Shown: in pieces, positions 17,901-22,197 of the stretch
Layout of the letters: each line of letters begins with the position of its first letter
Numbering within the stretch: position 1 is the stretch's first letter
Notes under the pieces: model-generated
Database searches by the model: none
Told to the model about the DNA's origin: nothing
The model's input: the letters and a program-made list of their open reading frames with translations, nothing else
Translations under genes and position numbers: made by a program
From: a virus
Lineage: Duplodnaviria > Caudoviricetes
Strand: one strand, 5' to 3'
DNA: 64,000 bases
IMG/VR virus record: IMGVR_UViG_3300014613_000025
Coordinates: 1 to 64,000 of that record

Positions 17901-18879
17901 TCATCGAGGACGCCCCGGTCAATGTGAAGGGTGTTGCTAGCGACGGCGCGGCGATTGTTGGCGTTGCCACGTCAAAGACAACGTTCACTAACACCAAGTA
18001 TGCAACGCAAGCCGAACTGTCGAACGCTGCATTTCTGCCAGTGGTCGCACACGCGGCATCGCAAGCCATCATCGCTGACAGGTACAAGCGCATTGAAGCG
18101 TTGTTCCGCGAGCATGATTGGTTGTCGCCATCGAAGCCGGTCTGGCACCCTACGCAACTGGACGGCTACATGGGTGCGAGACACCTTGACTTTGACGGCA
18201 ACATCACTGTCACCGAGGTCAAGACGCGTTCCACCGTTGATGCGAAGCCGTGCTTGCGCGAACGTCTAGCGCGAGCGTTTGGGTTGTCGCCAGACGCTAG
18301 TGACGACATCGTGGAGGCTACCGCGTGCAAGGCGTGGGATGGTGTCAGCGATAGGGCAACACGCCTTGATGTGGAATTGCGCGCACTGCGTGCAGACTAC
18401 GCGGTAGAACGTCAGCGCGCGTTGGGATTGGCCGACGTGTGCGGAGAACAGACCACCACTAACGGTTGGCTAGAGACGGAGAACCGTGACCTGCTAGCAG
18501 AGAACGCAAGACTACGTCGGAGACTGGACAAATGAGCTTCACCAGCGCTGAGATACTCGAAGAGTGCTTGTCGTCGGCATGCGTGCTAGACGCTACCCGA
18601 TACGATAGACTCTTCGCATGGTCGGACTACTGCGAGACGCGCGACAACGAGGCCGCTCAGGACCGACGCCAGCGCCTGCGATGCATTCGAGGGCGCACGC
18701 GCTCGCAATGCGGTTGGTGCGGCAGCGAGATTGTGCGCGGGTTCGACCCTGGCCGACCGCGTGGGTTCTGTTGCCATTCACACAAGACCCGCGAGATGCA
18801 CGAGCGATGCAAGCGGTTGAGGCGGGGGAGTGTTGCGGGTGGACAGGCGTTGTTGTTTGGGGAGGATGTGGGCCAATGA
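14985..18879 (+). CDS. run of small coupled hypothetical ORFs (14985-15176, 15216-15464, 15461-15739, 15736-15927, 16105-16380, 16377-16670, 16657-17154, 17151-17387, 17380-17586, 17579-18535, 18532-18879)
   Basis: mostly overlapping starts/stops and GGAGG RBSs; several Cys-rich; 16657-17154 has an HTH-like segment WLLEQY...SVSTALRRCGI. Confidence 0.6.
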
Positions 18880-19739
18880 CGTTGGAAGAGGAACAAGAAC
18901 AGCGCGCAGCGAAGTTCGTGGTGAGTGGGGCAATACCGCGCTCTGATTGGCCTCCCCTTCCTGGTGTATACTTCGCCCGTGTGGCAGAGATACCAGATCG
19001 AGTGAAGATTGGTCGGTCTGGTTGTATCCAAAAGCGGCTGGCTGACTTGGCTAGAATGAATTCTGGCACCTTGGAGGCGATGGCGTTCGCGCTTGGAGAA
19101 GAACCGTTAGAGTCGTCGTTGCATAATCGTTTCAGGGGCGCCAGGTTACATGGTGAGTGGTTCAGACTCACCGACGAAATCCAAGACGTGATTGTTAGTT
19201 ATGCCAACGAATGGCGAACCAAGATAACTGACGTGGTGCTCGCATTGCGTCAAATGGAATGGCAGAAACTTGTGGCTGAAGGGCGGACCTCCCCAGGTAA
19301 AGTGAAGGAACACATAACAGACAACATTGTGTCAGAATTGGTGTCAGGTGACATGTTTTGCGCAGAACTGTGTACGCCACACAATGGCGGAATGTGGCCC
19401 AAACCATGGCACCCTATTCTGTTAGCGGCGAGAGAGTGGTTTATCCGTAGCGTATTCGTCTTTCCAGACGCGGATAGTGGGATTGGTATAGAATACAGGG
19501 ATGAACTGCGGGAGATTGTCGATACCATTGGTCGCATTCACGCCGTATGTAACCCACGACTTGCCCAGGATTGGGCTCATTGGAGACGACCTAGGCCCTA
19601 TTGGGTCAGGCATTACATGAAAAATTCGTCTTTCTACCACGCGGCCCAACGCAACGGAATTGATGTTAACGAACTGGTCGAAGGTGTTGGTAGGTTGGAT
19701 AGTGAAAAAGAGATTGCGCTAGACTTCACTGGACACTAA
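18876..19739 (+). CDS. T5orf172/MUG113 (GIY-YIG-like) domain protein
   Basis: GVYFA...VKIGRS..IQKRLADL...LESSLHNRF...GEWF. Confidence 0.8.
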   Translation: MTLEEEQEQRAAKFVVSGAIPRSDWPPLPGVYFARVAEIPDRVKIGRSGCIQKRLADLARMNSGTLEAMAFALGEEPLESSLHNRFRGARLHGEWFRLTDEIQDVIVSYANEWRTKITDVVLALRQMEWQKLVAEGRTSPGKVKEHITDNIVSELVSGDMFCAELCTPHNGGMWPKPWHPILLAAREWFIRSVFVFPDADSGIGIEYRDELREIVDTIGRIHAVCNPRLAQDWAHWRRPRPYWVRHYMKNSSFYHAAQRNGIDVNELVEGVGRLDSEKEIALDFTGH

Positions 19740-19745
19740 CCCACG

Positions 19746-20243
19746 ATGACTCTCTCAACCTGGCTCGCCAACGACGAACTATTCCTCCGCGAACTACGCG
19801 AGGGCCACGCGTGGCAGATGCTGCCCGCCACGTTCTTCACGCTCGCAGGTCTCCGCGTCGAAGTGCCAGCACTGCGTGAGCGTGAGCGACAATCGCAGGC
19901 GCGGCAATGGTCGGACACCACCGACATCGTCCTAAACGGCTGGCCCATCGAAGTCAAGAGTAGGCGCGAGGCATTCACGAGCAACATTGACTACCCCTAC
20001 AAGACAGCGTTCGTCGACACCGTCTCAGGGTTCGAGGCGAAGACCACGAAGCCGCTCGCCTACGTGCTAGTGAGTCGACCCACCGGGGCCATGCTGTGCC
20101 TGTCCGTTGCCAAGACGCGAGCGGTGTGGAAGGTGGTCGAGAAACGCGACAGGGTCAGAGACATTGACGAGCGGTTCTACGTCGTTGGCTCGCGACACCT
20201 CCAACCGGTTGGCGTGTTGGTGGATGCGCTGAAGGCGACCTAA
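19746..20243 (+). CDS. possible PD-(D/E)XK-fold nuclease
   Basis: DTTDIVLNGWPIEVKSR motif. Confidence 0.5.
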   Translation: MTLSTWLANDELFLRELREGHAWQMLPATFFTLAGLRVEVPALRERERQSQARQWSDTTDIVLNGWPIEVKSRREAFTSNIDYPYKTAFVDTVSGFEAKTTKPLAYVLVSRPTGAMLCLSVAKTRAVWKVVEKRDRVRDIDERFYVVGSRHLQPVGVLVDALKAT

Positions 20244-20294
20244 ACGCGTGACGCCTATTGACGTGCGCTGAGATGTGGTTACCGTAGAAGATGA

Positions 20295-20371
20295 GCCGCT
20301 GTAGACTAATTGGCAGGTCGTCTCTCGTGGGCCCGTCGAGGGAGATGCGGGTTCGATTCCCGTCAGCGGTG
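20295..20371 (+). tRNA. atypical tRNA-like gene with enlarged anticodon arm (identity not assignable)
   Basis: acceptor GCCGCTG/CAGCGGT, D arm GACT-AATTGGCA-GGTC, T arm GCGGG-TTCGATT-CCCGT; anticodon arm 23 nt; upstream TTGACG-N16-TACCGT. Confidence 0.65.
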
Positions 20372-20389
20372 CTAAGTGGGAGGGAAGCG

Positions 20390-20755
20390 ATGCGAATACT
20401 ATTCGTTGACGATGACGATACCAGACACGACATCGCCGCCAAAGCGTTCAAGGCGCACGAGGTCTGGCACGCGCGAGACATTGACGTCGCCATCCACATG
20501 CTTGCAGCGCGCGAGTATGACCTGGTGTGTATCGACCACGACATGGCAGACGATGGCAGGACCGGGGTCGATGTCGCTACCGCACTGGTCGCCCAACCGT
20601 GGGAACCTCGCTTTGCGTGGGTCCACTCGTGGAACCCGGTTGGTCAGCAACGGATTGCGGACGTTCTAAGCGGCAAGGTAAGGCATGGCATCCGCGCGTT
20701 TTCTGGCGATGCGTGCGTGTCAGTGTCTCAGATAGTGAGAGGCATAGAGACATGA
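20390..20755 (+). CDS. cyclic-phosphate-processing receiver (cREC)-like domain protein
   Basis: ILFVDDD...YDLVCIDHDM...G.DVA...VHSWNPVG pattern. Confidence 0.75.
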   Translation: MRILFVDDDDTRHDIAAKAFKAHEVWHARDIDVAIHMLAAREYDLVCIDHDMADDGRTGVDVATALVAQPWEPRFAWVHSWNPVGQQRIADVLSGKVRHGIRAFSGDACVSVSQIVRGIET

Positions 20756-21130
20756 GAGCCATAGACGGTATCGCGGTAGCCATGCTCGGCGGTGCGATGG
20801 GTGCTATCGCATCAATGTCTGTCGAACGATGGGACGCACGTACCGTGTTGGCATCGGTAGCGTTAGCGGCCATGGCGGCATGGTGTGTGTCGCAGTGGAA
20901 AGGAGACGATGACGATGGCGAATAGCATGACCGTGATGGTGCCAAGGCGCATCGTGGTGCACAAGGACGGCGCGCATTGCGGGAGGTTGTGTTCTTGGTT
21001 GTGGGACGTATATGGCGCGTCAGAGTGCGATGTGTTCATTCTGCGCGGCGGCCCTTCGCGACCACTGGTTAGGGACAATGTCGGCCCGCTCCGATGCAAG
21101 CAATGCCTCGCCGCGACCAAGGCGAAGTGA
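20752..21130 (+). CDS. small membrane protein (20752-20925) and Cys-rich hypothetical (20909-21130)
   Basis: two hydrophobic helices in the first; coupled ORFs. Confidence 0.5.
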
Positions 21131-21840
21131 TGGCGCGTCACGACTCGCTAGGCGACCGAATGAAGCGCTACGAGTGCGCCACGCGCACAACGCTAACGCC
21201 TCGCACGCCGGTCATCGTCCGCGTTGACGGCAAGGCATTCCACGCTTACACGCGAGGGCTACCGGCATTCCACGAGCCGTTCGGTGATGCCATGGCTGTG
21301 GTCGCGTGGAAGCTATGCGAAGGCATCCAAGGCGCTGTGATGGCCTACGTGCAAAGTGACGAGGTCAGCGTTCTCGTGCACCCATACAAGCGCTATGCGA
21401 CAAGCGCATGGTTTGACGGGCAAGTCCAGAAGACCGTTAGCGTTGCGGCAAGCATTGCGTCGTCGACCATGACGGTGGAGTCCGCGCGTGTGTTCCAATA
21501 CATTAGACCCGCAGTCTTCGACGCGCGCGCGTTCGTATTGCCAGAGGGCGAGGTGGCTAACTACTTCGTCTGGCGACAGCAAGACGCTGTCCGCAACAGC
21601 GTTCAGATGCACGCGCGCTCGATGTTTTCTCACAAGCAATGCGACCACAAGAACTGCGACACGCTCAAGGCCATGTGTGCGGACGCGGGCAAGCCATGGG
21701 ATGACCTGTTGCCGCGCTGGCGCCAAGGTATCGTGTCGATGCGTGGCGGTGGCGACATCCCAGGGAGGTCAATGCCCGCCATGACGTTTGCCGACAACCG
21801 AGACGTCTTTGCGTTGTTGCTAGCGACGGAGGAGGAGTGA
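21130..21840 (+). CDS. tRNA(His) guanylyltransferase Thg1-like protein
   Basis: DSLGDRMKRYE, VIVRVDGKAFH, YVQSDEVSVL, FDARAF, YFVWRQQDAVRNS. Confidence 0.92.
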   Translation: MARHDSLGDRMKRYECATRTTLTPRTPVIVRVDGKAFHAYTRGLPAFHEPFGDAMAVVAWKLCEGIQGAVMAYVQSDEVSVLVHPYKRYATSAWFDGQVQKTVSVAASIASSTMTVESARVFQYIRPAVFDARAFVLPEGEVANYFVWRQQDAVRNSVQMHARSMFSHKQCDHKNCDTLKAMCADAGKPWDDLLPRWRQGIVSMRGGGDIPGRSMPAMTFADNRDVFALLLATEEE

Positions 21841-22163: not shown

Positions 22164-22197
22164 CTCGCGACGGGCCTAAACGCGTGGGACTGTAGAC

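Follow-up and report, generated by a model that had tools for sequence, protein, structure and literature searches.

A tRNA-like gene with a remodelled anticodon arm, almost certainly unable to decode, lies directly upstream of a cREC gene in a phage genome

Introduction

Can a tRNA-like gene that has lost the usual anticodon loop still be of use to a phage, or is such a gene what remains of a tRNA that once decoded? Phage tRNAs are known to counter host defences that cut tRNAs, and the tRNA-shaped RNA considered here is encoded beside predicted RNA repair genes. The locus lies in the IMG/VR record of an uncultivated phage (73,113 bp, linear, about 78% complete, 58% G+C), the first 64 kb of which are the window analysed here. 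A first-pass annotation had drawn attention to the gene, to its oversized anticodon arm and to its position directly upstream of a gene for RNA-end processing.

Results

A complete tRNA body around one aberrant arm

The gene at 20295-20371 scored 42.8 bits with the Rfam model RF00005 (gathering score 29; E 9.7e-6 for the 64-kb window), and the match covers model positions 1-71, the full model. Our own covariance model, built from 60 ordinary tRNAs of other phages (model R1), gave 52.2 bits, which is inside the range of real phage tRNAs. This match is the sole RNA gene above the Rfam threshold in the window and the sole tRNA match across the whole 73,113-bp record. A permissive Rfam scan (E up to 5) revealed nothing credible besides it, and a second tRNA-like RNA at 32-45 kb was not found. 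Two other public assemblies, an ENA contig of 35 kb and a Logan contig from a different run, match the region at 100% identity across 3-6 kb that take in the element, thus an assembly artefact is excluded. The gene is composed as follows:

20295..20371, + strand: tRNA-like gene, 77 nt including the discriminator G, CCA not encoded (Rfam RF00005, model R1)
20295..20301, + strand: acceptor stem 5' strand GCCGCTG, pairing with 20364-20370 in 7 bp (a G1.U72 wobble and six Watson-Crick pairs)
20304..20319, + strand: D arm with a 4-bp stem (GACT/GGTC) and the 8-nt loop AATTGGCA, containing A14, A15, G18, G19 and A21 (sequence and covariance alignments)
20320..20346, + strand: remodelled 'anticodon' arm, 27 nt compared to about 23 in a standard tRNA, counting position 26, arm and variable loop (folding, deletion enumeration)
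20347..20363, + strand: T arm GCGGG/TTCGATT/CCCGT with a canonical T loop (sequence and covariance alignments)

U8 and A9 are present in the sequence, and the variable loop GAGAT, 5 nt long in both covariance alignments, supplies G46 and the U48 that faces A15. Outside the arm, none of the 16 stem pairs is lost, three of them being G.U pairs, and the conserved core bases are all in place. The gene thus has the 7-bp acceptor stem, the D arm with G18G19 and the T arm with a TTCRA loop that define a tRNA body, and body and core are intact. The first-pass annotation had placed a tRNA-like gene with canonical acceptor, D and T arms and without an encoded CCA at exactly these positions, and the sequence together with both covariance models bears this out. 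Pseudogene-type decay, with scattered mismatches and lost invariant bases, is not seen outside the arm, which in a single sequence is also compatible with a very young pseudogene.

The anticodon arm folds into a long irregular hairpin

The two strands of the arm, TCTCTC and GAGGGAGA, can slip against each other, resulting in three near-isoenergetic folds. In the fold of minimum free energy (-31.9 kcal/mol, pair probability 83-88%), 20320-20326 pairs with 20340-20346, followed by a 1x1 mismatch, three pairs and a GCCCG pentaloop. In the register TCTCTCG/CGAGGGA, 7 bp enclose the 9-nt loop TGGGCCCGT and 3 nt are left for the variable loop; its energy is -29.6 kcal/mol, or -30.4 kcal/mol if two extra pairs form inside the 9-nt loop, and the canonical register of the covariance models reaches -26.1 kcal/mol. 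The arm had been described earlier as 6 nt oversized, with a 7-bp stem and a 9-nt loop. It is indeed oversized, but the net excess is 4 nt, since the 7-bp register borrows two bases of the variable loop. The 7-bp pairing can form but is not the thermodynamic optimum, and in the model the register with the 9-nt loop makes up a minority of about 10%. Each of the registers contains a 9-10-bp irregular helix with a GC-rich tip of 4-5 nt (or 9 nt), which exceeds a normal anticodon arm by 4-5 bp, and the covariance models place 13-15 nt where 9-11 are expected. According to the folding, the departure from an ordinary tRNA is confined to this one arm and is paired rather than eroded. The z-score of the minimum free energy is unremarkable for the tRNA-like gene (-1.74).

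A 5-bp stem with a 7-nt loop carrying U33 and a purine at position 37 is absent from every register folded, in agreement with the earlier observation that there is no U33-type 7-nt loop. We enumerated all contiguous deletions of 0-12 nt, and none of them restores a canonical loop in the canonical register. Removal of GGGCCC yields the loop GTGTCGA (anticodon GUC, with U33 and G37), but for this the register has to shift and the variable loop shrinks to 2 nt. Because no canonical loop appears in any register or by deletion in the canonical register, the folding models indicate that the RNA is almost certainly unable to decode as it stands and that simple excision would almost certainly not rescue it. 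The description of the RNA as non-decoding is well supported by the lack of a 7-nt U33/R37 loop, by the surplus of 4-5 bp and by the failure of every single excision in the canonical register. ARAGORN did report tRNAs here: in its default call, Thr(cgt), the 5-bp anticodon stem has to contain two mismatches, the D stem is reduced to 3 bp and the variable region grows to 11 nt, and its call with the option -i, Pro(ggg) with a 4-nt 'intron', leaves a U at position 37 in a structure that is forced and poorly paired.

Frameshift-suppressor tRNAs (e.g. of the sufD type) keep the 5-bp stem and U33 and have an 8-nt, rarely a 9-nt loop. The element shares an enlarged anticodon loop with them, but its stem is lengthened to 7-10 bp and it has neither the 5-bp stem nor an 8-nt loop with U33. 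The earlier proposal of a frameshift-type tRNA is therefore disfavoured.

The tRNA-like gene precedes predicted RNA-end repair genes

The surroundings of the gene contain the following features:

18618-19739, + strand: T5orf172/MUG113 (GIY-YIG-related) protein
19746-20243, + strand: 165-aa protein
20239..20249, + strand: CCTAAACGCGT motif that overlaps the 165-aa gene's stop codon, a candidate for a promoter or regulatory site of the phage
20258..20285, + strand: weak sigma70-like pair TTGACG, 16 nt, TACCGT, which stops 9 nt short of the tRNA (sequence reading)
20378..20384, + strand: Shine-Dalgarno-like GGGAGGG for the cREC gene (sequence)
20390..20755, + strand: cREC_REC (cyclic-phosphate-processing receiver), 121 aa (PF20274, E 1.1e-13, 52.1 bits, cut-off 27)
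21094..21840, + strand: Thg1-like 3'-5' polymerase (PF04446, E 1.4e-23; phrog_4717, E 6.4e-70); public callers start 36 nt later, 236 aa
26157..27200, + strand: ATP-dependent RNA ligase, DRB0094 (DraRnl) family (TIGR02306, 194 bits, cut-off 151; PF21189, PF09414)

All genes are on the + strand, in the order T5orf172, 165-aa protein, tRNA-like gene, cREC, two small ORFs, Thg1-like polymerase and a B12-binding radical SAM enzyme; farther downstream follow, again on the + strand, a methyltransferase, the DraRnl-family ligase and a SPASM radical SAM enzyme. The conserved residues D8, R12, D49, D51, H79 and N82 of cREC are all present. Its ATG at 20390 lies 19 nt past the last base of the tRNA, as stated before, and public gene callers agree on this start. 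An ATG-initiated ORF (20291-20755, + strand) spans the whole tRNA-like gene in frame with cREC and is an annotation trap. We rejected it as the coding region, since the cREC domain begins at residue 3 of the short form and relatives as well as public callers use that form. For domains of the cREC type, the predicted activity is the resolution of 2',3'-cyclic phosphates, both in RNA repair and in ADP-ribose processing, and they have been tied to RNA ligases in phages (PMC7824862, PMC9503650).

A consensus scan of 19900-21200 found neither sigma70 promoter-like sites nor intrinsic terminators, and thus none between the tRNA-like gene and cREC; the sigma70-like promoter TTGACG/TACCGT that had been read from the sequence fails this standard scan. 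The CCTAAAC site upstream, also pointed out earlier, is real, and the motif is over-represented in the window, with 13 copies where 3.3 are expected. Extended motifs similar to CCTAAACGCGT are located at 22175, 24891, 27217 and 45142 (+ strand); in each case GGG comes next, then a few bases and, at a fixed distance of about 16 nt, an ATG. From this context, we infer that the motif may be a signal specific to the phage, a promoter or a start signal used by middle genes.

Searches of the phage genome for Ro60/TROVE (PF05731), RtcB, a CCA-adding enzyme and an integrase found none of them. A remnant of an attP or integration site was rejected as an explanation of the element, the integrase being absent and the cloverleaf full-length.

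The arm contains the only GGGCCC of the genome

At the tip of the arm lies a hexamer that the genome otherwise avoids:

20329..20334, no strand assigned: GGGCCC at the arm tip, sole copy in the 73-kb genome (14.8-19.9 expected)

Taking 17 hexamer palindromes together, 14 sites are seen in the whole genome compared to 375 expected (CAGCTG 0 of 28 expected, GCCGGC 0 of 41, CCGCGG 1 of 42). TTAA occurs 6 times (100 expected), and GATC and AGCT are found at about 0.3 of expectation. Such avoidance of palindromes points to heavy restriction pressure from the host. Within the 8-kb repair module (20.3-28.5 kb), the GGGCCC of the arm is the sole residual site of the 17 palindromes. The purge is as complete here as in the rest of the genome, and therefore the module is not recently imported, unameliorated foreign DNA. 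The chance that one of the 14 residual sites falls into a 27-nt stretch is about 0.004, a post hoc figure. This suggests, by an argument that is itself post hoc, that the sequence of the arm has been held against the pressure that removed GGGCCC elsewhere.

The arm is quasi-palindromic, and a loop-loop duplex of 6 bp was calculated at -12.5 kcal/mol; an extended homodimer was calculated to be 17.7 kcal/mol more stable than two monomers. By this calculation, pairing of the arm with a second copy of itself is possible. The HIV-1 dimerisation initiation site is a hairpin with a 9-nt loop centred on a GC palindrome of 6 nt. The arm has the same layout in the 7-bp/9-nt-loop register; however, the two are unrelated, that register is the minority one, and dimerisation of the arm is a calculated property.

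Relatives and the surroundings of other cREC genes

No homologue of the element was found by blastn of 19800-20900 against GenBank phages, with exact or degenerate patterns for arm and T arm in IMG/VR, with a D-loop plus T-arm pattern and an arm plus T-loop pattern in JGI metagenomes, or in a genome collection searched for the tRNA-like element. A tblastn search with cREC against GenBank phages was empty. The closest relative of the cREC protein (L073) is 50% identical, and its gene has no tRNA upstream. In relatives of the 165-aa upstream protein (L122-L126), the tRNA and the whole module are absent. Of 71 Thg1-like loci, none contains a related element, and L069 alone has a cREC gene as well. 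Terminase relatives are at most 41% identical, carry unrelated tRNAs and have no cREC. With no homologue found, the element is compatible alike with a decoy or a substrate of the repair enzymes and with a decaying pseudogene, all proposed earlier.

Two side observations come from these relatives. Three phages with a homologue of the 165-aa protein (L124, L125, L126) encode translation initiation factor IF3 and a peptide deformylase beside dUTPase and UDG. Among the distant terminase relatives (L117, L118, L119), one tRNA-like gene has an anticodon loop of 8 nt (ARAGORN 'ccta'), another is a mini match of 54 nt and a third is a weak match of 67 nt.

A profile of 40 cREC proteins yielded 80 phage cREC loci, and 39 of these other loci have at least one ARAGORN tRNA within 2.5 kb, a raw count. 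In 8 of the 80, a tRNA on the same strand ends at most 150 nt upstream of cREC, with the isotypes Ser, Cys, Arg, Leu, Glu, Asn and Gln. Model R1 furthermore detected tRNA look-alikes directly upstream of cREC: three tandem copies of 128-133 nt in L244 (2071-2481; L246 is alike) and two of 128 and 66 nt in L243 (2219-2346 and 2422-2487). They have normal acceptor, D and T arms, a 50-60-nt domain replaces the anticodon arm, and ARAGORN misses them; they are sited in a tRNA array and share an internal hairpin similar to TTGTTCGGGCAACCGAAC. Like our element, they combine a tRNA body with a domain other than an anticodon arm directly upstream of cREC. Unlike it, they carry inserts of 50-60 nt with a conserved internal hairpin, compared to a net gain of 4 nt here, and there is no sequence relation between the two. 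cREC genes are thus at home among tRNA genes, and two or three other contigs, from at least two further lineages, have a non-decoding look-alike directly upstream of cREC. This proximity cuts both ways, since it explains a leftover, yet the recurrence of the pairing also hints at an association. Near another cREC gene (L250:4417-4496), an 80-nt look-alike has a 16-nt anticodon loop with the 8-nt palindrome GATGCATC.

A possible origin from tRNA-Thr

To trace the ancestry of the gene, we scanned one genome each of 185,579 species for tRNAs that agree with it in their first ten bases, in the T loop and in the 3' strand of the acceptor. The scan gave 98 matches; 80 of them were fetched, 64 of which are tRNA-Thr, 53 of these 64 being Thr(CGU). 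The actinobacterial Thr(CGU) anticodon stem reads TCTCA/TGAGA after G26, and the tRNA-like gene has TCTCT/AGGGA after G26. Furthermore, ACG is the commonest Thr codon of the phage (37%). Owing to the acceptor stem, the likeness of the anticodon stem and the ACG usage, descent from a gene of the tRNA-Thr(CGU) type is plausible, and we consider it likely from the sequence, but it is not proven, because the acceptor stem is common property in phages, where an identical one serves tRNAs for Thr, Leu, Arg and others; phage tRNA-Arg(CCU) genes also have G1.U72 and G73.

The identity set of tRNA-Thr consists of G1-C72, C2-G71 and, in the anticodon loop, G35 and U36. In the element, C2-G71 is present, positions 1 and 72 form a G.U pair, and the arm contains two copies of CGT, neither in a canonical loop. 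Compared to a canonical tRNA-Thr(CGU), the element resembles it in the full cloverleaf above the Rfam cut-off and in the acceptor GCCGCUG, which is mainly found in bacterial tRNA-Thr. It differs in being 4 nt longer, in having no 5-bp stem with a 7-nt U33/R37 loop, and in having G1.U72 and G73 instead of G1-C72 with A or U73.

Among phage tRNA look-alikes that share the acceptor stem (L307:4973-5061, L337:3053-3131), one of 91 nt has a 23-nt anticodon loop that folds into a hairpin of its own, and the other, of 81 nt, has an extended D loop. Bacterial tRNA-Leu normally has a long variable arm. A tRNA-Leu(TAG) of 74 nt, a class I length, is present in seven phage contigs (L308, L312, L316, L325, L341, L343, L345).

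Comparison with known tRNA-like RNAs

YrlA is a tRNA-like Y RNA encoded in bacterial rsr-yrlBA-rtcBA repair operons; the one from M. smegmatis is cut by RNase P and receives CCA (PMC4201824). Both YrlA and the phage element are non-decoding, have tRNA-like acceptor, D and T elements and are encoded beside RNA repair genes. The element, however, is a complete cloverleaf of 77 nt, whereas YrlA is a module within a larger RNA that has a Ro60-binding stem and needs Ro60, and the phage has neither TROVE/Ro60 nor RtcB. Because Ro60 is missing from the phage and no Y-RNA family of Rfam matched at E up to 5, we rejected membership in the Y RNA family.

The stable RNAs rnaC and rnaD (species 1 and 2) of phage T4 are small, have no known function and are encoded where a tRNA cluster ends that also holds a gene for a GIY-YIG endonuclease. 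In contrast to the element, rnaC matches model R1 with a T-arm-like fragment only (14.4 bits) and rnaD shows no match, so that neither is a full tRNA look-alike by this model. No cREC domain was found in the ten T4 ORFs neighbouring the two genes, and the parallel to T4 was rejected.

Discussion

The data are best described by a non-decoding RNA derived from a tRNA, matured in the same way as a tRNA and heading the cREC/Thg1-like operon, a proposal that we put at about even. The gene keeps everything needed to fold the top half and the core of a tRNA, and host RNase P, 3' endonuclease and CCA-adding enzyme should be able to handle its transcript; the phage itself encodes none of these maturing enzymes. 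The anticodon arm would have been rebuilt as a longer, GC-rich, quasi-palindromic hairpin unable to present an anticodon. Probably the RNA is transcribed as the first element of a unit with cREC, the two small ORFs and the Thg1-like gene and would then be excised, and the cut would at the same time fix where the cREC mRNA begins. The released RNA, non-decoding and with a tRNA body, might be a stable mimic that occupies a host factor targeting tRNAs. Alternatively, it might be a partner or substrate of the phage enzymes predicted to repair tRNA ends (cREC, the Thg1-like polymerase and the DraRnl-type ligase). Expression, processing and all functional roles of the RNA are thus inferred from its sequence and its neighbours. 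We lean towards retained function over random decay because the tRNA body is intact, the altered arm is base-paired and the sole GGGCCC has been kept. Also in favour of the proposal are the strong scores with both tRNA models, the identity of the sequence in three independent assemblies, the distance of 19 nt to cREC with no terminator found in it, and the tRNAs and oversized look-alikes near other cREC genes; YrlA is a precedent for a tRNA-like, non-decoding RNA that RNase P cleaves and that receives CCA (PMC4201824). Several observations stand against this: no homologue of the element was found that could show covariation or conservation, the closest cREC relative has no tRNA upstream, relatives of the 165-aa protein occur without the module, the GGGCCC argument is post hoc, the z-score is unremarkable and the consensus scan finds no promoter. 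In addition, the adjacency of cREC genes to tRNA arrays accounts for the position of the element even if it is a mere leftover.

Such a leftover would be a relic pseudogene, the last tRNA of an array from which the cREC/Thg1-like module was carved, with a small indel in the anticodon loop, persisting because it is young or because it overlaps transcription signals. This, the main rival, we regard as possible but on the doubtful side. The location of many cREC genes inside tRNA arrays is in line with it, as is the frequency of aberrant tRNA-like genes in phage tRNA regions. The element is, moreover, the sole tRNA of its genome, non-decoding and without relatives found, and with ACG making up 37% of the Thr codons an ancestral working Thr(CGU) would make sense. 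But the damage is limited to one arm, whose helix is lengthened and not broken, all 16 outside pairs and the core bases have stayed intact, and the arm retains a hexamer that was otherwise eliminated, in a module that is fully purged. That the gene still decodes, as Thr(CGU) in the fold proposed by ARAGORN or as an expanded-loop frameshift type, is very improbable in our view: the Thr call, the Thr-like acceptor stem and a TCGT at 20325-20328 resembling U33-C34-G35-U36 speak for it, but the ARAGORN fold is strained and far less stable than the long-hairpin folds. Neither the 9-nt loop, whose second base is G, nor the pentaloop has a U at the position of U33 or a purine 37, and G1.U72 weakens the G1-C72 identity pair used by ThrRS. 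An anticodon arm lengthened by 4-5 bp would furthermore misplace any anticodon on the ribosome.

The presence nearby of genes for an RNA ligase, for a 5'-end polymerase and for an enzyme predicted to be a cyclic-phosphate esterase could also be taken to mean that the RNA is a pre-tRNA with a tiny intervening sequence, which phage healing-and-sealing enzymes cut out and reseal to a working tRNA. The 4-nt 'intron' of ARAGORN and the GUC loop obtained by removing GGGCCC would fit, but the first solution leaves U37, the second needs the shifted register with its 2-nt variable loop, and there is no bulge-helix-bulge, no group I signature and no intron family in Rfam, with an excess of just 4 nt; no endonuclease that would make such a cut is known from bacteria, and we give this reading very little weight. 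Hardly any more credible is a role at the level of DNA, in which a protein, for instance a homing endonuclease or a regulator, would bind or cut the quasi-palindrome that surrounds the unique GGGCCC inside the tRNA-like gene. The GIY-YIG-related T5orf172 gene is located 550 nt upstream, and in T4 the GIY-YIG endonuclease gene segB lies inside a tRNA cluster. Nothing connects the upstream gene to GGGCCC, however, the inverted repeat is imperfect, and the intact tRNA body would be left unexplained.

Going beyond a non-decoding, tRNA-derived RNA at the head of the operon, one can imagine a purpose-built tRNA-shaped RNA whose GC-palindromic arm pairs with a second copy or docks a specific protein. 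Its partners would be the cREC, Thg1-like and DraRnl-type enzymes, and it would serve e.g. as bait for a host defence enzyme that cuts tRNAs or as an RNA cofactor or sensor of repair. More broadly, look-alike and cREC would be a recurrent functional pair in phages. We consider this extension speculative and rather unlikely.

The tRNA regions of phages hold many unannotated tRNA look-alikes of unknown use. The gene described here is an unusually clean case: its tRNA body is perfect, and the change in the arm is minimal and structured and, according to the folding models, abolishes decoding. The gene stands first in an operon of enzymes predicted to repair tRNA ends, and it has retained a hexamer that is otherwise forbidden in the genome. 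As a relic it would be a trap for annotation, in which ARAGORN reports a tRNA-Thr and an ORF runs through into cREC. If it is functional, it would offer a compact model for the use of the tRNA shape by phages beyond translation, and a handle on the still uncharacterised cREC domain.
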